A DNA stretch of 64,000 nucleotides from positions 131,494 through 195,493 of the forward strand of contig CAYOLO010000002.1 of assembly GCA_964404855.1 (NCBI GenBank), written 5' to 3'. Each line of letters begins with the position of its first letter. Position 1 is the first letter of the stretch. This DNA is from an uncultured Gammaproteobacteria bacterium (GTDB lineage Bacteria > Patescibacteriota > Microgenomatia > CAYQLK01). Made by a program: the position numbers and the translations under genes. Below the pieces are notes generated by a model that was not told where the DNA came from, ran no database searches, and was given only the letters and a program-made list of their open reading frames with translations. Positions 6,894 to 62,678 of the stretch are shown one piece after another.

Positions 6894-6897
6894 TTTA

Positions 6898-8568: not shown

Positions 8569-8570
8569 TA

Positions 8571-40527: not shown

Positions 40528-40836
40528 TTACATCTTGAGCTCGATGTCGATACCAGCAGGAAGCTGGAGATTCGTCAAAGAGTCTATCGTCTTACCAGTT
40601 GGTTCGATGATGTCGATGAGGCGCTTGTGAGTACGGACTTCAAAATGCTCTTGTGCATCCTTGTGGGTATGCGGAGACTTCAGGACTGTATATCGCCTGA
40701 CTTTGGTCGGCAGCGGGATCGGACCGACGATTTTAGCACCGGTTGATACAGCTGTGTTTAAGATTTCACGACAAGTCTGATCAATAACCCGACTGTCGTA
40801 ACTTTTTAAACGAACTCTAATTCTGCCTTTTGGCAT
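40528..40836 (-). CDS. rpsJ: 30S ribosomal protein S10
   Basis: MPKGRIRVRLKSYDSRVIDQ. Confidence 0.9.
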   Translation of the reverse strand: MPKGRIRVRLKSYDSRVIDQTCREILNTAVSTGAKIVGPIPLPTKVRRYTVLKSPHTHKDAQEHFEVRTHKRLIDIIEPTGKTIDSLTNLQLPAGIDIELKM

Positions 40837-40989
40837 ATTAATTTGCTTTTTTTATTTTTTAAAAACTTAATAGGCGAGTTTTATTCTCGCGTAAGGCGAG
40901 ATTTTATACCAGTTAAATATAAAATGCAACCAAGGTAATTATGACTTTTTTGTTTGGCAAAAGCGATGTTAACCAAAAGACAGGCAATG

Positions 40990-41030
40990 AAAAAGGCCGA
41001 CCATCTGAATTAAAGATGACCGGCCTAGGG
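40990..41030 (-). terminator. rho-independent terminator of the 41052..41543 unit (aggccggtcatc/gatggtcggcct stem plus T-run)
   Basis: 12-bp stem with two G-U pairs, followed by TTTTTC on the minus strand, 22 nt after the stop. Confidence 0.45.
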
Positions 41031-41051
41031 AATTGGAGCGAAAGGGCGCTA

Positions 41052-41543
41052 CTAGCCGACAGGTGCGGCGAGGATTTGGTTGGTGAATTCTACTGGAGAG
41101 ACCGCGCGGAACGCGACTCCTCCAGGGTACTTGAGCTCACCGCCGTCAGGTGCTACTCGCATCACGACCATCATCTCGTCTCGAGTGACGATGAACGAGG
41201 CGTGGGCGGCAAGATACTCCGAGCCTACCTCGAAGACCGTGTGTGTGCCGAGTCTGTCGAAGCTGGCGTGGTGCTCACGAAGATATACCATCGAGATGAC
41301 ACCTTCGGTGACGACGACGAACTTCTCGTCTTGGCCGAGTTGCCAGCGAGGGTTGTTGAGATCGTTTTGGATGTTTCGGAAGTCCGAAGAGCTAAGCGCT
41401 CCCCAGCCAATCCGACGGCCGTCAGTGTTGTACCAAACGGCATCAGCGACGACGACCTCGAATCCTGTCCTTTTTTGGCCGAGGACTAAGCCCCCAAAAG
41501 GAGCGCCGAAGTCGCTTTCCGGATCAATGTCCGGATCGATCAT
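41052..41543 (-). CDS. GC-rich hypothetical protein (163 aa), unit 4 of the rpsJ|tuf insertion
   Basis: About 58% GC ORF preceded by a family-type promoter. Its overlapping + strand ORF, 40941..41489, is judged an antisense artefact. Confidence 0.5.
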   Translation of the reverse strand: MIDPDIDPESDFGAPFGGLVLGQKRTGFEVVVADAVWYNTDGRRIGWGALSSSDFRNIQNDLNNPRWQLGQDEKFVVVTEGVISMVYLREHHASFDRLGTHTVFEVGSEYLAAHASFIVTRDEMMVVMRVAPDGGELKYPGGVAFRAVSPVEFTNQILAAPVG

Positions 41544-41640
41544 GCCAGGACTGAGCTTTACGGTAAGAATTGTCTTTCTCCATTTTTAGGGTGCGACTTT
41601 TACGACTGTGGTTTTGCAACCACAGGTCGAAAGTGCGATA

Positions 41641-41670
41641 TTTATATCATTTTTGAAGCTAAATGTCAAA
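41641..41670 (-). promoter_or_regulatory. family promoter copy A (minus strand: tagtaTTTGACA-17-TATAAA)
   Basis: -35 TTGACA (+ 41665-41670 as tgtcaa), 17-nt spacer tttagcttcaaaaatga, -10 at 41641-41646. Confidence 0.55.
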
Positions 41671-41703
41671 TACTAGAGGATACTTTTCTTTTTAAGAAAC
41701 GAG

Positions 41704-41846
41704 GTTTTTCAATTACTTTAATTAGCACATCAAAAATCCCCGCGTGATTTTTGATTCTCACTTTTTGTTCACTCTTTTGCTTGTGCAAAAACCATGCTCG
41801 TTCACAAAAAGAGGTCTAATTAAAGTAATTGAGGGATTAAATGACA
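41704..41846. repeat. conserved ~140-bp intergenic element, copy A
   Basis: About 85-90% identical to copies at 42571-42710 and 43974-44113. Contains hairpin caaaaatc-cccgcgt-gatttttg and stem ttttgc/gcaaaa at 41775-41790. Confidence 0.7.
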
Positions 41847-41854
41847 AAAAAAAA

Positions 41855-41880
41855 GAGCCCTCCTTTTTAGGGGAGGGCTT
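41855..41880 (-). terminator. family terminator hairpin GCCCTCC-TTTTTAGG-GGAGGGC plus T9 (minus-strand sense)
   Basis: 17 nt downstream of the stop of 41897..42415. Identical hairpins at 42745, 61966 and 62648. Confidence 0.7.
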
Positions 41881-41896
41881 GAGGAAAGGACGAGGA

Positions 41897-42415
41897 CTAC
41901 CACGTTGTGAGGGGTGTTCGCCCCGCAGACGCGGCTTGCTCGAATTGCTTTAACGCAAAGCTTTCGTCCGCTTCGGAATCGAAGAAGACTTTGAATTGCT
42001 GGGTTGGAACGTCGAAGTGAACAACCACAAGGCGCGCTTCGGTTTGGGTAAAGCCGCCAACGGCACCTTCGAGCGCATAGTCGACGACTGATCCCAGATT
42101 GAAGGACGCGTAAAGACAGATTGGCCGACTACCGTGTTTGTTAACGTAGTCGACGGCCGCGCCTAGAGCGTGTATATAAGCCTGCTCTGGCCTAAGGATG
42201 TTGATGTCCTCGTAGCGCATAAGTGGCGTACAGTTCTCGACGAGCGTCAGATCGCCGCGATTACTGAACAGCGTGAGATGACGCATACCTTGCGGCAAGA
42301 TGTCGAGGAGGCTGGGTGCTGGCTGGGTCGCATGTGATCCTGTCTTTTTAAGGAACAGAAAAACTGTCACAACAGCTACGACTACCAGACTGGTTACGAC
42401 AAGCGAGATGAACAA
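41897..42415 (-). CDS. GC-rich membrane-anchored hypothetical protein (172 aa), unit 3
   Basis: N-terminal TM (FISLVVTSLVVVAVVTVFLFL) followed by a soluble domain with no recognisable motif. About 56% GC. Confidence 0.55.
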   Translation of the reverse strand: MFISLVVTSLVVVAVVTVFLFLKKTGSHATQPAPSLLDILPQGMRHLTLFSNRGDLTLVENCTPLMRYEDINILRPEQAYIHALGAAVDYVNKHGSRPICLYASFNLGSVVDYALEGAVGGFTQTEARLVVVHFDVPTQQFKVFFDSEADESFALKQFEQAASAGRTPLTTW

Positions 42416-42483
42416 AGCTTATGGGGCTCCTTTTAGCTAAATGTGCTTCTGAGTGAGTTTTTACACTTACCCAATTGTTGTAA

Positions 42484-42511
42484 TTATATCATATTTTGAG
42501 CCTATAGTAAA
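42484..42511 (-). promoter_or_regulatory. family promoter copy C (diverged -35 TTTACT, 16-17 nt spacer, TATAAT)
   Basis: -10 at + 42484-42489 (attata), with spacer ...ctcaaaatatga similar to the other copies. Confidence 0.4.
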
Positions 42512-42570
42512 GAATCTGGTGAAATCTAATTTTAATATTACACAGTAGGGTTTTCTACTTTGTAGAAACA

Positions 42571-42710
42571 GTTTTTTCAATCCCCTTTCTTGGCACGTTC
42601 AAAATCCCTGCGAGATTTTTCTCTTTCACTTTTTGCTCGCTCTTTTGTCTTACAGACAAAAACCATGCCCACTACGCAAAAAGAGATCCAAGAATGAGAA
42701 TTGAGAGATA
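42571..42710. repeat. conserved ~140-bp intergenic element, copy C
   Basis: Same element. The covarying stem here is ttttgtct/agacaaaa (42643-42661). Confidence 0.7.
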
Positions 42711-42744
42711 TGAATTATGAAAATGAAGTCAAGCAAGAAGAAGC

Positions 42745-42772
42745 CCTCCTTTTTAGGGGAGGGCTATGGGCG
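42745..42772 (-). terminator. family terminator hairpin GCCCTCC-TTTTTAGG-GGAGGGC
   Basis: Downstream of the glpX stop (42798). Confidence 0.7.
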
Positions 42773-42797
42773 GATTGGTTTGTGAAGCGAACCGAGA

Positions 42798-43733
42798 CTA
42801 GTTGTCACGATCCCAATTGTGTTCGGTCTCGATCCGGCGAATAGTGCCGGTGAGGCCTCGCATCACGACTGAGTGACTGACCGTCACTCCGTGCGCCAGA
42901 GGCTGGATGCCTTGAAGCATGGTACCGTTGGTCACGCCTGTGGCCGCGAAATATGTATCCTGACTGGACACGAGATCGTCAAGGTTCATGACCCTGTTGG
43001 GGTCAATCCCCTTTTCGAGAATGGCACGCCGTTCTTCATCGCGAGAGATGAATGGCCGGCACTGCATGTCGCCGCGGAGAGCGATGATACCGCAGGCAGC
43101 CGTGACAGCCTCAGGCGACCCACCGCTGCCAAGCAGCATGTGAGCACCTGTGCCTGGCATGCAGGCAACCAGAGCGCCGGCAATGTCGCCGTCGCCAATG
43201 AGGTTGATGCGTGCACCCGCTGCCCGAACAGCTTTGATGATTTCGTTGTTGCGATCCCTTTTGAGGATGGTGACAACGACGCTGTTGACGGGAATGTCGA
43301 GAGCCTTGGCAACCTGCTCGATGTTCCAAGCGACCGGAGCGGTGATGTCGATTTTGCCCTTGGCTTCCTTGCCCACGACAATCTTGTCGAGGTAAAAGAA
43401 GTCACGGACGTCGATCATGGTCCCGCCTGGTGCGGCGGCGATAACAGCGATGGAACCTTCTCGCCCTTCGGAGAGAATGGTCGTCCCGTCGACTGGGTCG
43501 ACAGCAACATCCATCTTGGGTCCATTGCCGTTGCCGACCACTTGGCCGTTGAACAGCATCGGAGCTTCGTCTTTTTCGCCTTCGCCGATTCTGACGATAC
43601 CGTCCATGTCGACCGTGGCAAGCATGGCGTTCATGGCGTCGACGGCGGCTTGGTCGGCACCAATCTTGTCACCAAGACCGAACCAACGGACGGCACCGAG
43701 AGCGGCAGCTTCGGAAACCCGAATGAGCTCCAT
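42798..43733 (-). CDS. glpX: class II fructose-1,6-bisphosphatase (GlpX-type FBPase/SBPase)
   Basis: MELIRVSEAAALGAVRWFGLGDK...DGIVRIGEGEKDEAPML...VDPVDGTT...IGDGDIAGAL...LLGSGGSPEAV is colinear with GlpX. The ORF-track start at 43916 lies upstream of this unit's own promoter, so the start was set to the conserved MELIRV Met. About 58% GC. Confidence 0.8.
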   Translation of the reverse strand: MELIRVSEAAALGAVRWFGLGDKIGADQAAVDAMNAMLATVDMDGIVRIGEGEKDEAPMLFNGQVVGNGNGPKMDVAVDPVDGTTILSEGREGSIAVIAAAPGGTMIDVRDFFYLDKIVVGKEAKGKIDITAPVAWNIEQVAKALDIPVNSVVVTILKRDRNNEIIKAVRAAGARINLIGDGDIAGALVACMPGTGAHMLLGSGGSPEAVTAACGIIALRGDMQCRPFISRDEERRAILEKGIDPNRVMNLDDLVSSQDTYFAATGVTNGTMLQGIQPLAHGVTVSHSVVMRGLTGTIRRIETEHNWDRDN

Positions 43734-43887
43734 CCCGATATTGCGATCGGGCGTGGGAGTGTAGTTCCTGACCTTGAGTGGTCCGGAAGGGATGACGAGG
43801 GTTTGTGCCGATGTAATGGGTTTGGTTCTCCTTCTCCAAATAAATGAGCTGTAACGGACGTCCGTAACGGTTGTCCAAAACGGCGAA

Positions 43888-43916
43888 ATCTTACCACTTT
43901 TGAAGCTGTATGTCAA
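43888..43916 (-). promoter_or_regulatory. family promoter copy B (tagtaTTTGACA-17-TAAGAT)
   Basis: -35 at + 43911-43916 (tgtcaa), spacer tacagcttcaaaagtgg, -10 at 43888-43893. Confidence 0.5.
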
Positions 43917-43973
43917 ATACTACGGGCCTAAATAATAGTTATTTTGGAAAATATTAGTTTTTAATTACAAATT

Positions 43974-44113
43974 GTTTTCAATCCACTTTCTTGGCACACC
44001 AAAAATCCCAGCGTGATTTTTGTTTTTCACTTTTTGTTTGTTCTTTTGCTTGTTAAGCAAAAACCATGCCCACTCACAAAAAGAGATCCAAGAAAGTAAA
44101 TTGAGGGATAGTG
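43974..44113. repeat. conserved ~140-bp intergenic element, copy B
   Basis: Same element. The covarying stem here is tttgctt/aagcaaa (44044-44062). Confidence 0.7.
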
Positions 44114-44151
44114 AAAAAACAGATAGGAAGTTTGGAGTATTAAAGACAAGA

Positions 44152-44180
44152 AAAAGCCCTCGGGGTGAGCCGAGGGCTGG
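44152..44180 (-). terminator. family terminator variant GCCCTCGG-GGTGAGC-CGAGGGC plus T-run
   Basis: Immediately downstream of the stop at 44204. Same outer stem as the main family. Confidence 0.6.
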
Positions 44181-44203
44181 GGGGTGAACTTGGGAGGTGT
44201 TGG

Positions 44204-44716
44204 CTAGGCCAACGCGAGACTGGCGCGACGCATCAGCGAGACGACGTCGCCGCCTTGGGGCATGCCTTCTTCGAAGCGCTCGATGGCGTCGCAGTAGGGT
44301 TTGTCGGCGAGATACTCGTCGGTATGGATCCGCATCAAAAACGGAACGATTTCCGTGATGGCGGAGCTGTTGCCGTGGACTACTTCGCCTCCCCGCTTGT
44401 GGCGGAAGAAGAACGAATAACCAATGGTCAGCTCGGTTTCGAGCAGCCACTCGTCGGTCTCGAGGTCGGAAACGTGGAGCCTGCCGGTCTTGACGGACTC
44501 ATTACGGTTAATGAGCACGCCGTTCTCGGTCAGGAGATACATGTTGCCGCTTCGGCTGGTAAGCAGAACGGCGTTGAACTTGTCCCCACCGAGGAGCATT
44601 GCACCTTCACTGAACATGTCGCTCAGCCTGAAGACCCTGTCCGAATTGGCTCGGTCGATCCGATGGGCAAGGTGGTTACCCTTAACCTGGACCAGAATTG
44701 CTTCGGCGCTAGCCAA
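44204..44716 (-). CDS. GC-rich hypothetical protein (170 aa), unit 1
   Basis: TTG start with AGAGG RBS. No recognisable motif. The overlapping + strand ORF 44165..44746 is judged an antisense artefact. Confidence 0.5.
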   Translation of the reverse strand: MASAEAILVQVKGNHLAHRIDRANSDRVFRLSDMFSEGAMLLGGDKFNAVLLTSRSGNMYLLTENGVLINRNESVKTGRLHVSDLETDEWLLETELTIGYSFFFRHKRGGEVVHGNSSAITEIVPFLMRIHTDEYLADKPYCDAIERFEEGMPQGGDVVSLMRRASLALA

Positions 44717-44751
44717 AGTGTCTACACCTCTTTCTTAATGTTCTAAGGTAT

Positions 44752-44780
44752 ATTATACCATATTATAGGCTTATTTTCAA
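44752..44780 (-). promoter_or_regulatory. sigma70-type promoter for unit 1 (TTGAAA-17-TATAAT, minus strand)
   Basis: + strand tttcaa at 44775-44780 and attata at 44752-44757. Confidence 0.45.
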
Positions 44781-44802
44781 TTCTGATTAAATGAAAATGG
44801 TC

Positions 44803-44958: not shown

Positions 44959-46140
44959 TTAGGCAATTACCTTTGTGATGACTCCAGCACCTACGGTGTG
45001 GCCACCTTCGCGGATAGCAAAACGTAGACCTTCTTCCATAGCGACAGGTACGATGAGTTTGATTGTCATCTTGACTGTGTCACCAGGCATAACCATTTCG
45101 GTTCCTTCTGGAAGTTTAGCTTCACCAGTTACGTCAGTTGTACGGACGTAGAACTGTGGGCGGTATCCAGAGAAGAATGGAGTGTGGCGTCCACCTTCTT
45201 CTTTGGTGAGGATATAAACCTCAGCTTCGAATTCGGTGTGAGGGGTGGAAGTTCCTGGTTTAGTAAGAACTTGTCCACGCTCGACGTCGTCTTTTTCAAC
45301 TCCACGAAGTAGAACTCCAACGTTGTCTCCAGCTTGACCTTCGTCTAGCTGTTTGTTGAACATTTCGACTCCTGTGACGGTAGATTTCTTGATCGGGTTG
45401 ATACCAACGATTTCGATTTCTTCACCGACTTTGACAACTCCTCTTTCGATACGTCCTGTAACAACAGTTCCACGACCTTTAATCGAGAAAACGTCTTCGA
45501 CAGGCATCAAAAATGGCTTGTCAGTGTCGCGTTCAGGTGTTGGAACGAATTCGTCAACAGCTTTAAGCAATTCTTCGATACTCTTAACCCCTTCAGCGTC
45601 TCCTTCGAGAGCTTTGAGTGCAGAACCGCGAATAATCGGGGTTGTGTCTCCAGGGTATTGATACTTGGTCAAAAGTTCACGAATTTCCATCTCGACTAGA
45701 TCAAGAAGTTCTGGATCTTGAACCATATCAACCTTGTTCATAAAAACAACGATTGAAGGTACACCAACTTGACGTGCTAGCAAAATATGCTCGCGAGTCT
45801 GTGGCATTGGACCATCTGGAGCGGAAACAACAAGAATAGCACCGTCCATTTGAGCGGCACCGGTAATCATGTTCTTGATGTAGTCAGCGTGACCAGGGGC
45901 ATCAATGTGTGCGTAGTGTCTAGCTTCTGTCTCGTACTCAACGTGAGCGATAGAAATAGTAATACCACGCTGTCTTTCTTCAGGTGCCTTGTCGATTTGA
46001 TCGAAGGCTTTGAAGTTTGCCATTCCTTTGTCGGATTGGACTTTTGTAATAGCAGCAGTTGTAGTTGTTTTACCGTGGTCGACGTGACCGATGGTACCAA
46101 CGTTAACGTGCGGCTTGGTTCTTTCGAATTTGTCAGCCAT
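44959..46140 (-). CDS. tuf: elongation factor Tu
   Basis: [25 protein letters not shown]-motifs. 393 aa. Confidence 0.95.
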
Positions 46141-46270
46141 TTTTGGTTTTTCTCCTTAAATTAAACTTATATAAATAAGCCAAAAAAGCTCCTTTGCAAT
46201 TGAAGCTTTTTTTGGGCTTGTGTATTATTCAAATTACTACACGGTTTGTCAATATATAAAGTCTCTATGG

Positions 46271-47077
46271 CTAGTTGGCTAAACATTTGCCGGCGGAGTA
46301 GATTCGGGAGAAAATATTGTTCGATATCAAAAAATGATCCAATTTTGCCATAAGCAGGTTTTGCTTAGCCTCGTCTTGAGATTTGCAGCTTAGAATAAAT
46401 TGTTCAACAAAATAAACAATCGTGAGCAGTTTGGTGAGATTGGAATTAATGAATACCCCATTTTGGGTTAGTTTTTGAACAATCAGATCAAAATCCAGTG
46501 AAAAACCATCCGCAAAAAGTAGTGAATTACAAAACTCATATTCGAGAGGTCCAAATTGGAAGTGTTCAAAATCAATTATTTTAACCCCTGAATCGGTAAT
46601 GATCAGGTTGCCAATATGTAGATCTCGGTGCAGTGGTTGTGAAGGGAAATTGTCCCAGTCTACTCTGTTTATATAATCGATAATTTGGGTTATTTTCCCC
46701 GTTCGATCAGACCCGAGTTTTTGCCGTAAGACACGGATATTTGACTGAAATTGGCTCTTATTTGCTTGCAGATAATTGATCCATTCTGTGTTACCGGATA
46801 ATTGAGTCTTGTTGAGCTTAGTAATAATATCTGAAAGCTGGTCGCATATTAGCGGTTTGTTTATCTGGTCATTACTCTTTAGTTTGTCAAAAATCGTCAA
46901 ACGACCCAGACGAAAAACAATTTTCGGCGCACTACCCGGACTATTGAAATAGAAAGTATTGATTCCTAATTCCTCTCTTCTGGCTAGTTCGGCGGATGTG
47001 TAGAACTTGAGAATGAATTTGTCCATTACATCAATCACGTTGTGTACTCCCCTTCCGGTTTGGATTAATTTGATCAT
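46271..47077 (-). CDS. APH/ChoK-fold phosphotransferase (aminoglycoside-phosphotransferase-like kinase family)
   Basis: Brenner motif HRDLHIGNLII and IDFE(H) metal-binding motif. 268 aa. Confidence 0.65.
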   Translation of the reverse strand: MIKLIQTGRGVHNVIDVMDKFILKFYTSAELARREELGINTFYFNSPGSAPKIVFRLGRLTIFDKLKSNDQINKPLICDQLSDIITKLNKTQLSGNTEWINYLQANKSQFQSNIRVLRQKLGSDRTGKITQIIDYINRVDWDNFPSQPLHRDLHIGNLIITDSGVKIIDFEHFQFGPLEYEFCNSLLFADGFSLDFDLIVQKLTQNGVFINSNLTKLLTIVYFVEQFILSCKSQDEAKQNLLMAKLDHFLISNNIFSRIYSAGKCLAN

Positions 47078-47084
47078 TGATGTG

Positions 47085-47804
47085 TTAAATTTTTAAGTCG
47101 AAGAGTACACTTGGGAATTTTGGATTGAGTGTAAAAGCTTCGGCATATTCATTCTCTTTGCTGCGCCTAAGATGATAACCGCGGACACACGAAAGTGACT
47201 TCTCGAATACAGTTGATTTTGAATCAGCCTGAGACTCGTAAATACCGAATAGCTGCATCTTCTGATCAATATAATCAGTGATATCGACCAAAACCTGCGG
47301 CACTATCGGCAACATACCTTCACCATACAGAACGATAGGTGTGCGGTGAGGATCACCTAGTTCTGGTTTGACTCCGGTAGCGGACCAAAAGGAAGCCTCT
47401 TCGACGACATGAGCCGCTTCTCGGTGGTCAGAGTGGTAGTCAAGCGGATTCATAGTAAAAATCACTTCCGGCCTAACTTGTCTAATTATTTTGACTACTT
47501 TGAACATTAGTTTTTTGGAAAACTGAAGATTGAGGTCTTCTTCGGCAAGTAGGAATTTTTGTTTTAGACCCAAAAATTCAGTCGCTTTGTCAAATTCTCC
47601 CTCGCGCAAGTTAATAACCGTATTTTTCGCACTCTTTGATCCGTTTCGTCTATCTCTGCCCTCTTGAGAGTTAGTCAGCAGTATTTCGTAGGCATTGAAT
47701 CCTTGATTTTGGAGCTTGAATACACTGCCGGCACAGGTAATGTGATCGTCGGCGTGAGCTGAAACGATAAGTATATTTTTGGTACTAATGGGTTTTTTGG
47801 ACAT
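47085..47804 (-). CDS. PIG-L/LmbE-family N-acetylglucosaminyl deacetylase
   Basis: ILIVSAHADDHITCAGS zinc-binding motif, plus HSDHREA. Confidence 0.75.
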   Translation of the reverse strand: MSKKPISTKNILIVSAHADDHITCAGSVFKLQNQGFNAYEILLTNSQEGRDRRNGSKSAKNTVINLREGEFDKATEFLGLKQKFLLAEEDLNLQFSKKLMFKVVKIIRQVRPEVIFTMNPLDYHSDHREAAHVVEEASFWSATGVKPELGDPHRTPIVLYGEGMLPIVPQVLVDITDYIDQKMQLFGIYESQADSKSTVFEKSLSCVRGYHLRRSKENEYAEAFTLNPKFPSVLFDLKI

Positions 47805-47815
47805 GTTCCTCCTTT

Positions 47816-49822
47816 TTATTTGGTAATAATTTGACTTGTAATTAGCTGGCGCTTGCTGCCGCCACCACTGGATGCTTCCAGTGAAGTGGTTACCCGATAC
47901 GCCGAGTGAGACTGTCCTTGGAAATAGTAGACGTATGGCTCTACCTCAACCACAGCCTTCTGTTTGCCGCCTTGAAAATCTGCATCCCTAAGCTCAAAAG
48001 CATTCTTAACGATACTGATCAGCTCTGGGTGGGCTAAATAAAAACCAATATCCAAACCATCACCGGTGGATGCAACTGAACCGCCAGGAACTACCCTGAC
48101 AACGGGCGAGACAAGAGCTTTGGTATTGGTACCAACGGATAACGGCGCAACGTAGTTACTGCCTAGTGAAGTGTTTTTGTGTGCAACAACTATTGGAGTG
48201 TCGAAGTGGTGTTCGAGCTGCTGAAGAAGAAGTGCCCAGCCATTACCGCCGAGTGTCAGCCCTTGTTCTTTGAGATCAGCTAGGAGTATATCCCCTTCAA
48301 GATCGAAGTGATTAATGTCTGGCTCGGACTCTTCGATAGGCCTAATTAGCTTGCGTGTCGCAATGTCCCACGGCCCGTTACCAAAAACTCCCCGTGCAAA
48401 ACCACTTTTTGCGCTGTCATCGAAATATGTTTCTGCAAGTCTCTGATGGAACTGATCATAGTGATTTTTACTGGCTTCAGTTACTAAGGCACCAAAATCG
48501 GTAATATCTGAAAGCTTAGCTTGGGTTGCAGCAAAAAGTTCGCTACTTGGCGTGTGAAAGATACCCAGTCTCTGGCATAGTTGTTTATTGAGGGCGTCGT
48601 AAAGCTGGGCGAATGTTGATGGGTTTGATTTTGAAAGGGTTTTGAGTTTGATTAAATAATCAGAAAAATCGGCTGAGTCAAACATTCGGTCTAATTCATC
48701 TAGATCGATATCTGAATTACTGTCCAAATTTTGAAGTTTGGCTTTGGTGTCAGGCAACTGTTCAGGTGGCATAAGACCAGTCGAAACCAGCGAAGGTATT
48801 AATACTCGTTCCAAGTATGACTTCACGGAGTGAGAATCGGGGTCGGTATCATAAAACGATACCCTTGTTGAGACTGTTCCATCCGGGTTTTTAAAGCTGG
48901 CAGCGACAGACAACATAATCGCTTCTACCGGGTTGGCAAAATCAGTTGTGCCGTAGTTGAAAACCGAGTGTTCGTCTAATTGCGATTTTTCGGCTAGAGT
49001 TAAGACAATAGGATCACCTTCTCGGTGTCCCAGAGCGGTCGCGACTCCAAGCACTGAGGACGGCAAAACATTATCGGGAATGCCGAAAATCGAGGCAATT
49101 TTGGGTTTTGGGACAGAATTTGCCTGTGCAGAATTAACTTTGACCGTTTTGGGTAATGGTGGGTGGAATTTGTCGTTGACGATTTTTGTGCGCTCCAGGT
49201 CATCGACCTGGTCTGCCATTGTTTGTAATATCTCAATGGCTTGTTTTGGATCCATGCCAGTAATCCGCTGATTGAAAAAACGAGTATCGAATATATCCTC
49301 GCCGAAAAATTCGGCAAACATTACCCAAACCCCGCTAACTACTAATCGATTGTGAATTAAGTCGAGCGTTTGGTTGAACTGCGCGGTTTGAGATCGATCA
49401 ACAAATATTTGGGGGTTAAGTGAGATAGACTCAGATAAGTGAATTGCCGTCTTGGGTAATATCTGCTCATTGAGCACAACCTTATCAGGATGCTCTAGCC
49501 GCGCAATGGTTACCTGAACAAGGTGATCAAAATTCTTAACCATTTTGCGTAATTCCTGAACTCTTAGCTGATCTGAGGTTGAAACATCAACCTGATTAGC
49601 TTTGGCAAGGCCAGCAATTCTGGATAGTTCAGTCCCAGGAATGAAGTTGACCGTGAATTTGGCTTGATTTGGTTTTGGGTGCTTACTTGCTTCAAGGCTT
49701 ACAAAATGTGAAGCCGAGTTAAAAACCTGTGTAAGCTCAATCGGCGGGAGTTCTGAAATATCTTTTAGCGGGTTAGCAAGTTCAGGACTGGTATTTGGTA
49801 TGGTTGGTCTTTCTTTAGTCAT
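47816..49822 (-). CDS. large hypothetical protein (668 aa), no recognisable domain
   Basis: Long uninterrupted ORF at ~47% GC with no TM and no signature motifs. Confidence 0.55.
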   Translation of the reverse strand: MTKERPTIPNTSPELANPLKDISELPPIELTQVFNSASHFVSLEASKHPKPNQAKFTVNFIPGTELSRIAGLAKANQVDVSTSDQLRVQELRKMVKNFDHLVQVTIARLEHPDKVVLNEQILPKTAIHLSESISLNPQIFVDRSQTAQFNQTLDLIHNRLVVSGVWVMFAEFFGEDIFDTRFFNQRITGMDPKQAIEILQTMADQVDDLERTKIVNDKFHPPLPKTVKVNSAQANSVPKPKIASIFGIPDNVLPSSVLGVATALGHREGDPIVLTLAEKSQLDEHSVFNYGTTDFANPVEAIMLSVAASFKNPDGTVSTRVSFYDTDPDSHSVKSYLERVLIPSLVSTGLMPPEQLPDTKAKLQNLDSNSDIDLDELDRMFDSADFSDYLIKLKTLSKSNPSTFAQLYDALNKQLCQRLGIFHTPSSELFAATQAKLSDITDFGALVTEASKNHYDQFHQRLAETYFDDSAKSGFARGVFGNGPWDIATRKLIRPIEESEPDINHFDLEGDILLADLKEQGLTLGGNGWALLLQQLEHHFDTPIVVAHKNTSLGSNYVAPLSVGTNTKALVSPVVRVVPGGSVASTGDGLDIGFYLAHPELISIVKNAFELRDADFQGGKQKAVVEVEPYVYYFQGQSHSAYRVTTSLEASSGGGSKRQLITSQIITK

Positions 49823-49844
49823 ATTTTGGCTATAAAAAAACCTC

Positions 49845-49915
49845 CCGGTGTGGGAGGTTGTTTGGCTTTTATTTAAAGCTGTGGCTCTTTAGATAAGAGA
49901 CCTCCCACATGAAGA
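49845..49915 (-). promoter_or_regulatory. terminator/antiterminator-like leader upstream of the 668-aa gene
   Basis: Minus-strand 5'-tgtgggagg...(40 nt)...cctcccacacc-gggagg-ttttttt. The central cctcccaca can pair either with upstream tgtgggagg or with downstream gggagg, which is the terminator followed by T7. Confidence 0.4.
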
Positions 49916-50033
49916 AATGCGCAAAAAGCGCATCCAGGTCTGGTGGAGATAAATACAGTTAGAATTCAAATTTTGTACAGATAGAATATCCATAGTTGAA
50001 GTAGATAATACGATTGGGATAATGATTTGTCAA

Positions 50034-50354
50034 TTAATTACTAAAGTCTGTTTGAGTGTCTTGACCATCTTGAATTAATTCCTGATATTTTTCTTGATTT
50101 TTCATTCTGGCCTCTTCAGCTCTTTCCAGCTGTGCCTGGGGATTAACAGAAACGAAAATGGCGGCGGCAAATATCAAAAACCAAATCAGAACAAAAAAGG
50201 CAAAAATTCCGGTAACGAGGAATTTGACCCATTTGGGCCAAGCGGTCCAAATCCACATCAGTACAAAACCTGCAGGAAAGGCAAAAACCAATAACAAAAC
50301 TGTTACAAGTGTTTTGGTGTCACTGGACATTCCTTCAGACTTAGTGTTTACCAT
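50034..50354 (-). CDS. small two-TM membrane protein, hypothetical
   Basis: TVLLLVFAFPAGFVLMWIW and FLVTGIFAFFVLIWFLIFAAAIFV, with a Gln/Glu-rich C-terminus. Confidence 0.45.
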   Translation of the reverse strand: MVNTKSEGMSSDTKTLVTVLLLVFAFPAGFVLMWIWTAWPKWVKFLVTGIFAFFVLIWFLIFAAAIFVSVNPQAQLERAEEARMKNQEKYQELIQDGQDTQTDFSN

Positions 50355-50396
50355 ATGTTTTCATTGTGACTATTTTGGATGATTTTTGCAAAAAAA

Positions 50397-50420
50397 GCCC
50401 CCGGGGGTTAGCCGAGGGCG
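50397..50420 (-). terminator. family terminator variant GCCCCCGG-GGGTTAG-CCGAGGGC
   Basis: Downstream of the stop at 50448. Same arm sequence as the variant at 44152. Confidence 0.5.
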
Positions 50421-50447
50421 AATAAAGGGTGGTGGCAAAAGCTGTGG

Positions 50448-50993
50448 CTAGTTGCCCAGCCAGCTGCCGTGTGTGCCGATGATCTGCGTACCGTCGCGGA
50501 ACACGACCATGTCGTGGCTCGCACTAAAAATCCGCTTGCGCTGATCCTTGACTTCCAGCTTGAGGACCCAGCCGTTGAAGGACTGGGCCTGGACGTAGAC
50601 TCGGACCTGGCCGATCGGATTGGTCCTGATGTACTTCAGCCGATTGTTGATGATCTTGGTCGCGTCGAAGTTGACGACTTGGGCGCTGGCCAGGGTCATT
50701 TTTTCGAGGCTTGCAAGAAGAGTCTCCTCTGCAACGTTGGCATTGTCTACCTTAGCCATCTCCTCGCGGAATTTGGCAATGGCAAGCTCAAGCGGTTGGT
50801 CTTGGAGGTCAATGGCGAGGGTGGAGAAGATCGTCAGGACGACTGTCCTGTCTGCGTACGCGGCTTCAACAAGCCGAGTCAGCGTCCTCACACCGTGAGT
50901 ACGTCCGACGACCTCAAACATATACGGAAGCTGAAGTCCGTATGGAATGAGATCTTCGACCGAAGGGTATATTGTCCTTTTTTTGCGGGGCAA
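50448..50993 (-). CDS. GC-rich hypothetical protein (181 aa) directly downstream of fusA
   Basis: About 57% GC. TTG start with AGGAAG RBS. No recognisable motif. The + strand ORFs 50469..51029 and 50620..50898 are antisense artefacts. Confidence 0.5.
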   Translation of the reverse strand: MPRKKRTIYPSVEDLIPYGLQLPYMFEVVGRTHGVRTLTRLVEAAYADRTVVLTIFSTLAIDLQDQPLELAIAKFREEMAKVDNANVAEETLLASLEKMTLASAQVVNFDATKIINNRLKYIRTNPIGQVRVYVQAQSFNGWVLKLEVKDQRKRIFSASHDMVVFRDGTQIIGTHGSWLGN

Positions 50994-51028
50994 ACTTCAC
51001 TTCCTTTTTCAGGTGCGATTTACAGCTA

Positions 51029-51057
51029 ATTATAACCTATAATAATGTAAATTGCAA
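51029..51057 (-). promoter_or_regulatory. sigma70-type promoter for the 50448..50993 unit (TTGCAA-17-TATAAT)
   Basis: + strand attata at 51029-51034 and ttgcaa at 51052-51057. Sits between the fusA stop and the GC-rich ORF. Confidence 0.45.
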
Positions 51058-51072
51058 TTATGTAGGAGGAGG

Positions 51073-53193
51073 TTAAACTGACTGACCTTTGGATTTGGCG
51101 ACGATGGTGGCAGCGATATTGCTAGGCACGACATCATAATGACTGGGAAGAAGAACTGATGTCCCGCGACCCTGAGTCATCGAACGAAGATTGGTTGTGT
51201 AGCCAAACATCTCTGATAATGGAACGAGTGCTCGAATAATTGTGGCATTACCGCGGCTTTCGGAACCTTGGATCTGTGCTCTTTTGCTGGAAAGATCGCC
51301 CATAATGTCACCCATAAATTCGTCAGGGACGGTGACTTCGACGTTCATAATAGGCTCAAGCAGAACCATATCTGCATGTTTGGCCGCGTCTTCGATAGCC
51401 ATACTGCCCGCAATTTTGAAAGCCATTTCGGACGAGTCGACATCATGGAAAGAGCCGTCATAAACAGTGACCTTCATGTCAACCACGGGGTAGCCGGCTA
51501 AAATACCTGAGGCCATTTTTTCGGTAACACCTTTGTTGATTGGAGTAATAAATTCCTGAGGAATTGCCCCGCCTTTGATTTCACTTGCCCAAATATAACC
51601 TTCTCCGCGACCAAGCGGTTCGACACGCAACAGACAGTGACCATATTGACCACGACCTCCAGATTGACGAATATATTTACCCTCTCCGTTTGCCTGCTTG
51701 GTGATTGTTTCTCTGTAGGCAACCTGGGGTTGACCAACATTAGCCTCGACTTTGAATTCGCGCTTCATACGATCAGCAAGAATCTCAAGGTGAAGTTCTC
51801 CCATTCCGGAAATGATGGTCTGTCCGGTCTCGTGATCGGTTTTGATCCTGAATGTCGGGTCCTCTTCGGAGAGTTTGGAGAGAGCCAGACCCATTTTTTC
51901 CTGATCGGCTTTGGTTTTTGGCTCGATCGCTAAATCGATAACCGGCTCTGGGAAGGTAATACTTTCAAGGACGATGGGCTTGGTTTCTTCAGCAAGAGTG
52001 TCTCCGGTAATTGTCTTTTGCAAACCAATAACGGCAACGATTTCTCCAGCAAAGGCTTCTTTGATCTCTTCGCGCTTGTCAGCATGCATTAACAGTAATC
52101 GTCCGGCACGCTCTTTTTCTCCTTTGGTTGTGTTGGTGATATACGAGCCAGAAGATAATGTGCCGGAATAGACACGGACAAAAGTTAATTTACCAACGTG
52201 GGGATCGACTTGGATTTTGAATGCAAGACCACAGAATGGTTCTTCGGGGGTATTCTTACGAACTTCTGGTTCGCCTGTTTTGGGATTAGTTCCGTGTGTT
52301 TCGCCAACATCCTGAGGAGAAGGAAGGAATTGTACAACTGCATCAAGCAAGGGTTGGACGCCTTTGTTGCGCAAACTGGAACCGGCAAGTACCGGAACAA
52401 TCTGATAATTGATAACGGCTTTTCTGAGTGCGGTATAAAGCTCATCGAGCGTGGGCTCCTGACCATTAAGGAATTTTTCGATCAGGTTATCGTCGGTTTC
52501 GGAGATCTTCTCGATTAAAATCGCGCGATATTTTTCGACTTCAGCTTTGTGTTCTTCGGTTACGTCCGAAAGAGTGTATTTAGCACCTGTTTCGTCAGTT
52601 TCCCAAATATATTCTTTGCGTGTAAGCAGGTCGATAACACCCTTAAAGTCGTTTTCGGAACCGATAGGAATATTATATGCTACTGCCGGAGCAGCAAGCC
52701 GATCCTTGATCGATTGAAGAGTTGCGTGAAAGTCTGCACCAAGTTTGTCCATTTTGTTAACAAAACAAACTCTAGGAACTTTGTATTTGTCTGCTTGACG
52801 CCAAACGGTTTCTGATTGTGACTGAACACCTTCTTCGGCATCCAGAACTGTAACACCGCCGTCCAAAACACGCAGGGCGCGCTCAACCTCGGCAGTGAAA
52901 TCGACATGACCCGGAGTGTCGATAATATTGATTCGGTGTTCAATTCCTTCAAAAAGATTGCCTGTGGGTGTCCAAAATGTAGTCGTCGCAGCTGAGGTGA
53001 TGGTGATGCCACGCTCCTTTTCCTGCTCCATCCAGTCCATTGTGGCTGCACCTTCGTGAACTTCACCAATTTTGTAACTTTTGCCTGTGTAATAGAGAAT
53101 TCTTTCTGAAGTTGTAGTTTTGCCTGCGTCGATATGGGCAATGATTCCGATGTTTCTAATTCTGTCGAGTGGGTAGGAACGTGTGTCAGCCAT
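51073..53193 (-). CDS. fusA: elongation factor G
   Basis: [21 protein letters not shown]. 706 aa. Confidence 0.95.
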
Positions 53194-53199
53194 AGTTGA

Positions 53200-53679
53200 T
53201 TACCACCTAAAGTGTGCGAAGGCTTTGTTAGCTTCGGCCATTCTAATCGTGTCTTCTCGTTTCTTAATCGCTGCACCAATATTGTTACTGGCATCGATAA
53301 GCTCAGCGACTAATTTGTCTTTCATAGTGTGGTATTCACGCGATGGACGGTCATGGGCTGCTTTGATGATCCAGCGGATAGCCAGAGCCTCTTTGCGGTC
53401 ACCGCGAACTTCGACCGGAACCTGATAGTTGGCACCACCGACACGACGGGGACGAACTTCAACGCGCGGAGCGACATTATTAATAGCGGTTTCAAAAACA
53501 TCCAAAGCGTCTTTTTTGGTTTTGGCAGCAATTTCGTCAAAGGCGGAATAAACGATTTTTTGTGCGATTGTTTTTTTACCGGATTCCATTACACGGTTAA
53601 TAAAACGGGTAACAACCAGTGAATTGTAGATCGGGTCCGGTTCAATTGTTCGTTTAGCAATAGCTTTGTTTCTTGACAT
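53200..53679 (-). CDS. rpsG: 30S ribosomal protein S7
   Basis: Position between rpsL and fusA, plus [28 protein letters not shown]. Confidence 0.9.
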
Positions 53680-53688
53680 AAAATATTT

Positions 53689-54135
53689 TTAGATTCCTTT
53701 AGCAGCAGCCTCTGCGGCGCTGGTAGCTCCGCCTTTTTTGGTTCCATATAGAGAGCGAGCTTTTTTGCGATTAACAACACCGGTAGCGTCGAGTTTGCCG
53801 CGAATGATGTGATATTTGACACCTGGCAAGTCTTTAACACGACCCCCGCGTACCATAACGACTGAGTGCTCAGCCAGCTGGTGACCAATACCCGGAATAT
53901 AAGCCGTAACTTCTTGCTTGTTACTCAATCTGACACGGGCAACCTTGCGAAGTGCTGAGTTAGGTTTTTTCGGGGTCATTGTTTTGACCACGGTACAGAC
54001 ACCTCTCTTTTGCGGAGCCGTGCCGGTTGTCGGACGGTTAATGAGCGAGTTAAAACTCTTACGCAAAACCGTGGCTTTGATTTTTTTTGGCTTGGATTTA
54101 CGTCCGTGCCTGATAAGTTGCTGTACTGTTGGCAT
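53689..54135 (-). CDS. rpsL: 30S ribosomal protein S12 (C-terminally extended)
   Basis: [13 protein letters not shown]...[16 protein letters not shown]. Confidence 0.9.
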
Positions 54136-54170
54136 ATTTTTTTATTGCCGCGGGATTATACCTAAGCTTT

Positions 54171-57100
54171 TTAAGCTGCGTCAACCTCACCTTCTGCGGG
54201 AATGTTGTCGACGATAGCGCGATCGACTGAAGTTGGAATCAGGCGTCCAATAATTACGTTTTCCTTCATACCTAATAATGGATCAACTTTACCTTCAGAA
54301 GCAGCCTGTGTTAGGACATTGGTAGTTTCCTGGAACGAAGCGGCTGACAAGAAGCTTTCTGTGTAAAGAGAAGCTCTGGTGATACCTAAAATTACCAACT
54401 CTGCGGTAGCAGGCTCACCGCCTTCGGCGATTGTTTTGGCATTTTCGTACTCATATACATGCTTAGCAATGTGTTCGCCAGGCAGGAATTTGGTGTCACC
54501 TGAGGAGGTAATTTTGACTTTCTCACTCATCTTGCGAATGATGACTTCGAAGTGCTTGTCGTCGATAGGTACACCTTGGGCCTCATAAACACTCTGCGCT
54601 TCGTCGGCGATGTATTTTTGAGCTTCACGCAAACCTTTGACTCTTAGAATTTCTTTAACGTCAAGATGACCTTTTGAAAGCGGTTCTCCGGCTTTTATAG
54701 TGTCGCCGGTAGTGATATTAAGATCTTCAGTCAAAGGCAAGAGGTACTGTTTTTCGGTGACGGGTTTTTCGGAACCTTTGATCGTGATAACAAAACCCTC
54801 AGCAGTCTCATCAACTGTGACCTTACCGGTTATTTCAGCAATCGGCGCGGAAACTTTGGGTGTTCGGGCCTCAAGCAGTTCTTCAACACGCGGTAGACCT
54901 TGGGTAATATCGGTTCCAACAATACCTCCGGTGTGGAAGGTTCTCATTGTCAGCTGTGTTCCCGGCTCACCAATACTTTGAGCGGCGATGACACCAACCG
55001 GCGTACCGATCTCAACTAGTTTGCGGGTTGAAGTGTCCCGACCGTAACAAAGTGCACAAAGTCCAATCGTAGCTTCACAAGTCAACGGCGAGCGGACGAT
55101 AATTTCATCAGCTGAGTCGGCGACTTTTTTGGCGGTAGTGAGATCGAGAAGGTCTCCGGCTTTTGCCACACCTTTGACGTCTTTAGCAAGAACCATACCA
55201 ATAATTCGATTCTCAAAAGCTGCACGGCGAGCCGGATCGGTTTTGAAAACAGTTATACCTTCCTTGGTACCACAGTCAAGCTGACGAATGATTACGTCGT
55301 GAGAAACATCAACCAAACGTCGAGTTAGATATCCTGACTCAGCTGTACGCAGAGCACGGTCTGCCAGACCTTTTCTGGCACCACGACTCGAGGTGAAGTA
55401 CTCAAAGACACTTAACCCCTGGCGGAAATTACTCTTGGTTGGAAGAGGAACAATCTTACCGGAAGGGTCTTGAACCAAACCTTTCATACCCGAAAGCTGT
55501 TTAATTTGGTCTGAAGATGCACGACTTCCACCTGAATCAGAAATCATTTTGACCGAGTTGTCGTTTTTGATCGCCGCCCAGGTCTTCTGGTACACGACAT
55601 CGGTTGTTTCTGTCCAGATGTCGTTGGTTAGGCGACGCTTTTCTGCTTCGGTGATCAGACCGTCGTCGAATTTCTTTTCGATTTCGTCAACGCGCTTATC
55701 TGCTTCAGCGATAATTTCGTCCTTTTCGGGCACGATCTCATTATCAAAAACAGAGACAGACAGACCGGAGACCGTAGCGAACCTGAATCCGATATTTTTG
55801 ACGTTGTCGATTAGTTTAAGCAGTTCTTCTTCTGTCAGGTTCTCAAGATGAGCACTGATTGTGGATTTAATTGTCGAGTTGCGGAAAGTCTCGTTAAGGA
55901 ATGGAATTTTGTCTGGCAACATGCGGTTGAAATTGATTCGACCGACAGTAGTCTCTACAACCTTGTCCTCCATTCTAACTTTGATTGGCTGACGCATGCC
56001 GATTTTGCCGTTCTGCCAAGCAAAAATCGCCTCTTCAGAGTCAACAAAAATCGTGTCAACCGGCTGAGCATCTTCATCGATCGAAGTGATGTAGTAAGCT
56101 CCAAGTGCCATTTCCTTGTTGGGGATCGTGATTGGAGTACCATCAGCTGGACGAAGAATATTCTGTGAAGCCATCATCAAACGACGCGCTTCAGCTTGTG
56201 CGTCGCTAGATAGCGGAACGTGGACTGCCATTTGGTCTCCGTCAAAGTCAGCGTTAAATCCTGCACAGATACAAGGGTGAATTCTAATTGCGTCACCTTC
56301 GATTAGTACCGGATAGAAGGCTTGAATACCAAGCTTGTGAAGAGTTGGAGCACGGTTAATCAAAACCGGGTGTTCACGGGTAATTTCTTCAAGAATATCC
56401 CAAACTTCGGGCGGTCTTTTCTCAAGTACGTGTTTTGCGCTCTTAACGTTAGGAGCCAGCCCAAGACCGATGAGGTCGCGAAGAACGAAAGGTTTGAACA
56501 TTTCAAGAGCCATTTCCTTGGGGATACCCACCTGGTCAAGATCGAGTTCCGGACCAACAACGATAACCGATCGTCCAGAGTAGTCAACACGCTTACCTAG
56601 AAGATTCTGACGGAATCTTCCCTGCTTACCGCGTAACATGTCAGAGAGGGAACGTAGCTCAGCCTGAGTTGTGCGAGTAGTGGTTGAACGGGAATTAGTA
56701 TCAATGAGAGCGTCAACTGCTTCCTGCAACATACGCTTTTCGTTGCGAAGAATGATTTCCGGTGCACCGAGGTCAATTAGTTTTTTGAGACGATTATTGC
56801 GGTTGATCACGCGACGGTATAGATCGTTAAGGTCACTTGTTGCAAAACGTCCACCGGATAGCTGGACCATCGGACGAAGATCGGGCGGAAGAACCGGAAG
56901 GACAGTAAGAACCATCCAAGTCGGGTCGATATCTGCCTTGCGCATACCTTCGGCAACTCTTAAACGCTTAGCGGCTTTGATATGTTTGATACCGGAGACT
57001 TCAGTAAGCTCTTTTCTTAGATCAGTAACAAGTGCGTCAAGATCGATGTTTTCAAGAATAGTCTTAATGGCTTCTGAACCCATTCCGACTTTGAGGAATG

Positions 57101-61766: not shown

Positions 61767-61928
61767 TTATGGCTTTTTTAGTTTTTTTAAGAAAAAGCCC
61801 CGTGGGTTGAGCACGGGGCGGGGTGTGGATTGGTCAGCCTGCCAAGGCAACAAAGTAGAGCACAGAATACGACCGCGCGCCCTATCGGGTTTATCGGACA
61901 TGTTCCAGAACGCCCTTGAACAGGTCAT
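61767..61928 (-). other. GC-rich ~150-nt transcription unit: candidate sRNA or 53-aa ORF (MTCSRAFWNMSDKPDRARG...), its 3' end spanning the 61796-61830 terminator
   Basis: Minus-strand -10 TATAAT at + 61948-61953, GC-rich segment 61830-61945, then hairpin gccccgtg-ctcaaccc-acggggc plus TTTTTCTT. The ORF reads through the terminator hairpin. Confidence 0.3.
61796..61830 (-). terminator. rho-independent terminator (gccccgtg/cacggggc stem plus T-run)
   Basis: Hairpin followed by tttttctt on the minus strand. Confidence 0.5.
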
Positions 61929-61965
61929 CCACACCAGGTAATTATATTACCGCTGGTCAAATAAT

Positions 61966-61993
61966 AAAAAACCCTCCTTTTTAGGGGAGGGCT
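61966..61993 (-). terminator. family terminator hairpin (A)CCCTCC-TTTTTAGG-GGAGGG(T) plus T-run
   Basis: 18 nt downstream of the stop at 62011. Confidence 0.65.
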
Positions 61994-62475: not shown

Positions 62476-62531
62476 CACACAGATGATTCTCAAGTTTCTG
62501 TTTGAACTCCTTTTGGTAATGAACTGAGGCG

Positions 62532-62647: not shown

Positions 62648-62678
62648 AAGCCCTCCTTTTTAGGGGAGGGCTAGGGCG
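62648..62678 (-). terminator. family terminator hairpin GCCCTCC-TTTTTAGG-GGAGGGC
   Basis: 13 nt downstream of the stop of the 56-aa ORF. Confidence 0.65.

Follow-up and report, generated by a model that had tools for sequence, protein, structure and literature searches.

Accessory genes lodged between conserved genes are known from several systems. A phage moron is defined by its own promoter and terminator, a GC content differing from that of its surroundings and a location between genes that lie side by side in relatives (PMC3594210), and the minimal mobile elements of Neisseria are accessory genes between housekeeping genes that are exchanged by transformation and homologous recombination of their flanks (PMC3787668, PMC3082526). 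Two further points of comparison are the cassette arrays of integrons and the structured intergenic repeats of the Correia repeat-enclosed element, ERIC and BOX type (PMC2649163, PMC10969869). Here we compare with these systems a region (40850-44790) that separates tuf (44959-46140) from rpsJ (40528-40836) in a 64-kb contig stretch (hereafter the window) of an AT-rich, uncultured, Microgenomates-type bacterium of the Candidate Phyla Radiation (CPR), and that holds four minus-strand open reading frames (ORFs) with a GC content of 53-58%. This 3.9-kb gap is best read as a clade-specific accessory-gene island, vertically inherited yet still turning over, and we consider it fairly probable that its genes are old, horizontally derived, moron-like accessory units that were domesticated with host-type modules and are turned over by homologous recombination. 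A literature search for GC-rich inserts in the ribosomal operons of Patescibacteria returned nothing relevant.

The four ORFs (U1, glpX, U3 and U4, from tuf to rpsJ) differ sharply from their setting, as a first-pass annotation of this DNA had proposed. In sliding 200-nt windows the ORF bodies have a GC content of 0.53-0.63 and the spacers one of 0.31-0.37, with sharp steps, whilst tuf, rpsJ, rplC and the S10-operon genes that flank them lie at 0.36-0.50. The same architecture recurs, again as annotated, at two other loci of the window, with U5 directly after fusA (50.4-51.0 kb) and U6 and U7 upstream of rpoB (62.0-62.9 kb). GC at third codon positions (GC3) is 0.60-0.76 in these seven units, compared with 0.21-0.49 in ~65 other ORFs of the window and a single further outlier (18762-19400, GC3 0.50), and the amino-acid composition of the units is likewise of the GC type. 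The compositional steps had been placed at the boundaries of the untranslated regions (UTRs), which holds for the 3' step, found at the terminator, but not for the 5' step: the leaders are AT-rich or intermediate, which puts this step at the start codon, and the GC-rich block accordingly comprises the ORF and its 3' UTR, not the whole transcript. That tuf and rpsJ normally lie close together was borne out by ~65 more distant Microgenomates and other loci, in which the gap is 24-763 bp and lacks glpX, as against 2.9-4.2 kb in this clade, where GC-rich units and AT-rich spacers follow in the same order.

The units thus resemble phage morons of the HK97/HK022 type in consisting of a single ORF with its own promoter and intrinsic terminator (both predicted), in lying between genes that are adjacent in related genomes, in having a GC content unlike that of their neighbours, in a predicted expression independent of the surrounding operon and in a content that varies between relatives. 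They differ from morons in their residence, since the neighbours are tuf, fusA, rpoBC and ribosomal genes with no phage genes nearby, and in forming a tandem array whose units have promoter, Shine-Dalgarno, terminator and spacer modules in common; systematic non-AUG starts and the age and vertical inheritance of the array set them apart as well.

The age of the array follows from its distribution in related lineages (L002, L003, L006, L086, L089 and L098), which are represented by independent Logan, ENA, JGI and NCBI assemblies. The order tuf-U1-glpX-U3-U4-rpsJ is common to the window and L003; L002 has tuf-glpX-U3-like-U4-rpsJ, L006 carries an additional unit, Ux (tuf-glpX-U3-like-Ux-U4-rpsJ), L086 reads glpX-U3-like-Ux-like-U4-rpsJ, L089 has a different small ORF between tuf and glpX-U3-U4-rpsJ, and in L098 a host gene is followed by the spacer repeat R1 (see below), U4 and rpsJ. 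U1 was found only in the window and L003; Ux was confined to L006 and L086, and L003 retains a remnant of its promoter. Identity of U4 ranks L089 > L086 > L002 ~ L006 > L003, which is also the ranking for ribosomal protein L3, and this match indicates vertical co-divergence; as the array is common to the six lineages, its insertion predates the radiation of the clade. The comparison shows that the units entered the ancestor of this Microgenomates-type clade and have co-diverged with the host. The nearest GTDB species representative shares 67% of L3, and the next L3 matches (45-53%) include Woesebacteria, Curtissbacteria, Daviesbacteria and other Microgenomates. As the array is shared by at least six lineages and co-diverges with the ribosomal proteins, the mosaic described by the first-pass annotation is not a recent one. 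That annotation had also raised the possibility of a chimeric assembly, and an assembly or binning artefact that placed GC-rich fragments of another organism in a CPR contig would indeed produce sharp composition steps, with contigs often breaking at R1 repeats. However, the tuf-U1, U1-glpX, U4-rpsJ and fusA-U5 junctions are found again in independently made assemblies that differ in sample and pipeline, which excludes a chimera, divergence between the assemblies is graded and the spacers carry host-type promoters, and we therefore assign an artefact next to no probability. Other insertions were seen within or beside the S10 operon of further CPR and Microgenomates genomes, namely a GC-rich or unknown gene between rpsJ and rplC (L018, 8872-9759), GC-rich or unknown genes between rplB and rpsS (L094, 13500-17300) and a GC-rich insert next to rpsJ (L080, 2070-2789).

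All seven units have their own near-consensus -35/-10 promoter and a GC-rich hairpin with a T-run, predicted from consensus scans and reading of the sequence and located where sigma70-type promoters and terminators had been annotated; the leaders are short and often contain a 5' hairpin. All parts lie on the minus strand. The orphan ORF U1 (44204-44716; 170 amino acids (aa), GC 0.58, GC3 0.76) has a TTG start 8 nt past AGAGGTG, a TG-extended promoter found by consensus scan and homologous in L003 and L089 (TTGAAA-17-TATAAT, 44752-44780) and a terminator hairpin with T-run found by sequence scan (AGCCCTCGG..CCGAGGGCT, 44155-44178), and is followed by R1 copy a (43969-44112; covariance-model match of 157 bits). 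The gene glpX (42798-43817, GC 0.58), encoding a class II fructose-1,6-bisphosphatase, has a probable ATT start 10 nt past AAGGAG, a promoter (TTGACA-17-TAAGAT, 43888-43916) that is kept in L002, L003, L006, L086 and L089, and the terminator module AGCCCTCCCCTAAAAAGGAGGGCT (42742-42765; repeat and sequence scans), beyond which lies R1 copy b (42568-42712; 145 bits). U3 (41897-42415, GC 0.53), an orphan of 172 aa with an N-terminal transmembrane helix, starts with TTG after AAGGAG; its promoter (TTTACT-17-TATAAT, 42483-42511) is kept in the same five lineages, and it is followed by the same module AGCCCTCCCCTAAAAAGGAGGGCT (41856-41879; repeat and sequence scans) and R1 copy c (41700-41840; 159 bits). 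U4 (41052-41570, ~172 aa, GC 0.57) has a probable ATT start 6 nt past GGAGA (first ATG at 41543), a promoter read from the sequence and belonging to repeat families D6 and D11 (TTGACA-17-TATAAA, 41641-41669) and a terminator found by sequence scan, with a 13-bp stem and T-run, that is predicted to insulate the S10 operon (40994-41026). At the other loci, U5 (50448-50993; 181 aa, TTG start, GC 0.55) has a promoter at 51029-51057 and a terminator at ~50395-50420 (sequence scans), U6 (62011-62493; 160 aa, GC 0.62, tentative TTG start) has a terminator module at 61971-61992, and U7 (62691-62867; GC 0.55, TTG start), encoding a 58-aa membrane peptide, has one at 62650-62671.

These signals are in large part the same sequences used again. 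A 22-nt hairpin (GCCCTCC-TTTTTAGG-GGAGGGC in plus-strand reading) has four copies in the window, each after a unit, for a chance expectation of 0, and across genomes the GCCCTCC/GGAGGGC terminator module follows at least eight unrelated ORFs, with the hairpin highly conserved including its loop. U4, glpX, U6 and U7 have promoter regions that group into repeat families and that also fit the consensus of host promoters (e.g. those of tuf and rpoB). Together these comparisons show that many unrelated ORFs draw their predicted expression signals from the same set of host-type modules. The slot after tuf is occupied by U1 in the window and L003 and by an unrelated ORF of ~80 codons in L089: in all three, the tuf terminator, promoter, leader, Shine-Dalgarno sequence and TTG can be aligned, all similarity is lost past the TTG, and alignment resumes at the terminator hairpin. 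The possibility that the L089 ORF is a decayed U1 was rejected, its local alignment score being that of shuffled sequence. Similarly, the slot after fusA holds U5 in the window and L089 and an unrelated 144-aa ORF, with homologous promoter, Shine-Dalgarno sequence and TTG, in L006. The alignments thus show ORF swaps in otherwise conserved slots.

The spacers had been described as host-like DNA, and they are AT-rich, but they also contain conserved structured repeats. R1 is a ~141-nt repeat, present in three spacers of the window, that is modelled as a three-way junction closed by a 17-bp stem; its covariance model detected further copies in L003, L005, L006, L089, L097, L098 and L100, and none in distant relatives or elsewhere in the window. 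In an alignment of ten copies, itself fitted to the model, pairing extends to 95.3% of cells, and changes on both sides make 23 of the 43 pairs compensatory (10 of 17 in the outer stem), values reached by 0 of 500 shuffles, and slid controls are 46-56% paired. R1 therefore shows covariation beyond shuffled and slid controls, as expected of a structured non-coding RNA with conserved secondary structure, and both its G-U pairs and its folding energies favour the unit strand. R1 matched no Rfam family at the gathering threshold over the whole window, where only a tRNA-Pro was returned, or in a permissive search of 40.8-44.9 kb. It lies past the predicted terminator and before the next promoter, or, in L098, directly after a host ORF without a terminator, and inspection by eye for a promoter of its own revealed no -35/-10 pair at a consistent position. 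The element is optional: the arrays of L002 and L086 are intact without it, and no copy follows U4. There are one to three copies per locus, and all those whose context was examined (every copy but that of L097) adjoin GC-rich units; in L100, in another neighbourhood, beside suf genes, R1 is found with two GC-rich units and the GCCCTCC/GGAGGGC terminator module.

R1 is like Correia, ERIC and BOX repeats in its length of ~140 nt, its intergenic position near promoters and terminators, its long terminal stem and its several copies, and it is plausibly transcribed and processed. It does not show the features of a miniature inverted-repeat transposable element or Correia element: it lacks terminal inverted repeats of conserved sequence, its outer stem varying by compensatory changes, and no flanking direct repeat or target-site duplication is visible in the alignments. 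Covariation that preserves structure over sequence argues for an RNA function and not for inverted repeats recognised by a transposase. We infer that R1 acts in cis as an RNA structure, within read-through RNA or the RNA of 3' UTRs, in a processing or insulating role, and that it is not a recombination site. The spacers also contain a second conserved element, R2 (GCGCAGGACGTAG ... AAGCGAGTAAC), immediately 5' of some unit promoters (L003 7190-7330; L006 2930-3010 and 7715-7790; L089 9795-9865; L086 1-45; L100 8400-8470); in L003 it looks as if it were left over from the promoter region of a unit since lost. A further recurrent feature is a small GTTTCTT..AAGAAAAC hairpin.

Integron cassette arrays share with the units a tandem arrangement of unrelated single-ORF modules, mostly of unknown function, with hairpin elements between them and a variable content. 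A dedicated, integron-like capture of ORFs would hold that a site- or structure-specific recombinase sees the terminator hairpin and/or R1 as attC-like folds and that ORFs were inserted into ready-made expression slots, the (T)TTG start forming the left junction. Such a mechanism would explain why replacement is ORF-precise in two slots, with homology stopping at TTG and resuming at the hairpin, and it is in keeping with the conservation of hairpin and loop after unrelated ORFs, with the recurrence of TTG-type starts and with R1 elements that, like long attC sites, are conserved in structure and variable in sequence between cassettes. However, the hallmarks of an integron are missing. No intI adjoins the array, and Pfam scans of the 29 non-ribosomal ORFs of the window, which detected RecA, RecX and RNase Y, found no integrase, transposase or reverse transcriptase; neither was an integrase, transposase or RAYT found in the 64 kb or among the called genes around the arrays on related contigs, which likewise showed no recombinase domain. 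In place of attC sites with R''/R' boxes after every cassette there is R1, which has the ends CTCAATT...AATTGAA and no RYYYAAC/GTTRRRY boxes and is dispensable in the manner described above; attI is likewise absent, and in place of promoterless cassettes on a common Pc promoter each unit has its own -35/-10 and terminator. The units also co-diverge with the host without shuffling, and the U1 and U4 homologues found in the clade occupy the same slot. The annotation was thus right that this is not a classic integron, and of its further suggestion, a capture process that supplies a host scaffold, the scaffold stands, being the same behind unrelated ORFs, whilst no dedicated capture machinery was found. 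We consider integron-like capture by a recombinase very unlikely. Equally speculative, and in our estimate improbable, is an expression-slot system by which the clade would capture, express in throttled form and exchange foreign ORFs with ORF-precise junctions, an analogue of the integron without a known integrase. Its parts would be the promoter, 5' hairpin, Shine-Dalgarno sequence and (T)TTG/ATY start on one side and the GCCCTCC-N8-GGAGGGC hairpin with R1/R2 on the other; R1 or the hairpin would be the recognition structure and non-AUG initiation a safety valve for new genes.

Recombination has left a trace at the locus itself. From 49979 to 46180 the window and L003 have ~100% nucleotide identity, over a tract that contains the p668, PIG-L-family and APH-family genes and reaches the 5' part of tuf; identity is then 86-90% within tuf, ~78% in U1 and ~74% in the S10 operon. 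Since L089, the closest lineage by ribosomal proteins, has only 51-58% protein identity in 46180-49979, the tract shows a recent homologous exchange between diverged lineages, with a breakpoint within tuf at ~46.0-46.2 kb. Like the minimal mobile elements of Neisseria, this locus lies between conserved genes and has no dedicated mobility gene, and its spacer repeats may aid recombination; it is the position between ultra-conserved genes, together with the breakpoint in tuf, that makes it fit their logic. It differs from them in that we saw only the tract ending in tuf and two ORF replacements, not the exchange of whole units through their flanks, and in that competence is assumed.

The units also differ from host genes in how translation is predicted to start. 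Host genes of the window begin with ATG in 51 of 52 cases, and a Shine-Dalgarno core (GGAG/GAGG/AGGA) precedes 11 of the 52, compared with 7/7 units; the predicted starts of the units include no ATG (0/7), five being TTG and two ATT. The glpX start is ATT in the window, L002, L006 and L086 and ATC in L003, and that of U4 is ATT in the window and L089, ATC in L003, TTG in L002 and L086 and ATA in L006. In these orthologues the start lies 6-10 nt past the Shine-Dalgarno sequence and is followed by conserved peptide, for glpX an N-terminal extension, RNYTPTxDRN, before MEL that is conserved in L002, L003, L006 and L086, and the true start of glpX is probably the ATT at 43817 rather than the ATG at 43733. 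As predicted from these signals, the units constitute a translation-initiation regime distinct from that of host genes. Initiation factor 3 (IF3) discriminates against AUU, AUC and AUA, which suggests that translation of the units is low or throttled, or IF3-dependent, from strongly transcribed, stable mRNAs.

As to origins, glpX is a full-length class II fructose-1,6-bisphosphatase gene by profile comparison above curated thresholds, as annotated: the product matches Pfam FBPase_glpX (PF03320) at 5.8e-118 and 393.7 bits over profile positions 1-307/307, and TIGR00330 at 309 bits (cut-off 259). Outside the clade its best identity is ~60-63%, the named matches being mostly Dehalococcoidia and other Chloroflexota, plus Gaiellales, and its N-terminal extension resembles that of mycobacterial (M. 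tuberculosis) GlpX and is of actinobacterial type. Judged by protein similarity, a foreign donor is demonstrable for glpX only, so that the foreign donors expected by the first-pass annotation were recovered for this gene (60-63%, Dehalococcoidia/Gaiellales) and not for the other ORFs, which are clade-restricted orphans or, in the case of U4, belong to a remote family. U1 and U3-U7 have no match in Pfam, NCBIfam, PHROGs or PADLOC, and an all-against-all BLASTP found no paralogy among the units. A phage origin of the orphans found no support: they lack PHROG matches, and a tblastn search of five of them, concatenated, against 50,697 phage records gave no match. Among 5.8e9 proteins U1 has five homologue clusters, two of which, with contigs looked up, lie just after tuf or another gene, and among the same 5.8 billion proteins U4 has three close clusters; in the clade, homologues of both occupy the same slot in every case whose context was examined. 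U3 orthologues are 82% (L089), 42% (L003) and 32% (L086) identical. With a profile of U4, 69 remote relatives were recovered; they are 140-170 aa long, carry the motif GWYN..GEKLGWGDLS and have no family annotation. On this similarity U4 is assigned to a remote uncharacterised family. One relative, in the ~50%-GC genome L094, lies between rpsJ and rplC at native composition; others, in L092 and L093, are GC-rich ORFs surrounded by AT-rich sequence and have a promoter and terminator of the same type. No U4-family genes were found in the tuf-rpsJ gaps of distant Microgenomates. The U4 family also has a short motif (GWYN..GEKLGWG) in common with the hairpin of the RecA C-terminal domain (AWYSYKGEKIGQG), a likeness that is not significant against single RecA chains.

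The GC excess of the units is diminishing. Fourfold-degenerate sites differ by 0.5-0.7 between lineages, close to saturation, and GC at these sites (GC4), 0.55-0.75 in the units of all lineages and 0.22-0.50 in host genes, tracks host GC4 with an offset of +0.25-0.35. Synonymous changes of the closest pair (the window and L089) were polarised by parsimony with the other lineages. In the units 68 changes run from strong to weak bases (S>W) and 32 in reverse (W>S), a count in which parsimony inflates S>W because the sequence is GC-rich, compared with 40 and 40 in host genes, and the units are therefore losing GC: their amelioration is in progress. The 2:1 excess in the polarised counts weakens the view that GC is held at equilibrium. 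By slot and lineage unit GC is 0.45-0.62, the first-slot ORF of L089 having 0.45.

The favoured account of moron-like, domesticated units would then run as follows. A unit would be a single ORF, taken from a higher-GC donor, with a consensus promoter, a short leader, a strong Shine-Dalgarno sequence, a deliberately weak start (TTG/ATT/ATC/ATA) and a strong intrinsic terminator. The ultra-conserved tuf, rpsJ, fusA and rpoB and the repeated terminator, R1 and promoter modules would serve as durable homology arms, which would be why the islands lie beside these genes, and through these arms imported DNA would replace, add or delete units by RecA-dependent recombination. Harm from read-through into the autoregulated S10 operon would be the reason for keeping the terminators. 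CPR bacteria (Patescibacteria) have tiny genomes and depend on other cells, and gene acquisition and domestication are poorly known in them; at this locus the most conserved operon block of the bacterial chromosome can be a long-lived docking site for autonomous accessory units that share standard expression parts and, unlike host genes, have predicted near-cognate starts. The S10 block may be a general docking site in CPR/Microgenomates, the phenomenon then being wider than this clade. Three matters become testable: a regulon defined by Shine-Dalgarno sequence and non-AUG start with possible IF3-dependent control, R1 as a candidate new family of structured RNA, and ultra-conserved genes as homology anchors for accessory-gene exchange between diverged, naturally transformable lineages.

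Several points weigh against this account. The recombination tract that was observed ends in tuf and itself carries no unit swap, and how an ORF first joined the scaffold so precisely is left unexplained by the evidence. The promoters, terminators, start codons and transcription of R1 are predictions. No donor can be named for 5/7 ORFs, clade-confined orphans, and because of this confinement it is their composition alone that speaks for a horizontal origin. Finally, the S>W:W>S ratio of ~2.1:1 in the units is well below the ~4.6:1 expected from host mutation bias alone, and GC4 is still 0.55-0.75 despite near-saturated fourfold divergence, so a further force, such as selection or biased conversion, may be slowing the loss of GC. 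Taken further, these two observations would suit a GC content that is actively maintained and no foreign relic, either by selection for RNase-resistant, long-lived mRNAs in an AU-rich transcriptome that RNase Y degrades or by GC-biased gene conversion at a recombination hot spot. The 5' hairpins and strong 3' hairpins of the units, the RNase Y gene in the window, the recombination documented at the locus and the absence of outside homologues for most unit ORFs are all compatible with this. The net S>W flux in units, with none in host genes, and the spread of unit GC across slots and lineages run counter to it; biased conversion should also have lifted the GC of spacers and neighbouring genes, which is not the case, and selection on mRNA stability does not require an amino-acid composition of the GC type. 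We regard active maintenance as rather unlikely, whilst amelioration and an additional GC-holding force may not be separable here. As a case in which GC content remains high well after acquisition, the locus is relevant to the question of amelioration as against selection or biased conversion.

Some further features of the window were recorded. Between U6 and rpoB (61800-61935, minus strand) there is a ~115-nt GC-rich non-coding stretch for which a permissive Rfam search of 61.3-62.05 kb returned nothing credible. A 9-bp helix (GGTGTGGAT...ATCCACACC) closes this candidate small RNA, which encloses several hairpins and has a terminator of its own at ~61783-61820. The minus-strand gene at 18762-19400 encodes a secreted protein, has a GC content of 0.51 and is without the unit scaffold; it is preceded by a structured-looking leader of ~200 nt (~19400-19640) that had no match at the gathering threshold in the whole-window Rfam search. 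Host GC3 follows a regional gradient along the window (1-17000 compared with 45000-61000), and the gradient is marked, with values of 0.22-0.28 on the left, 0.25-0.35 for ribosomal protein genes and 0.39-0.45 for tuf, fusA and rpoBC.

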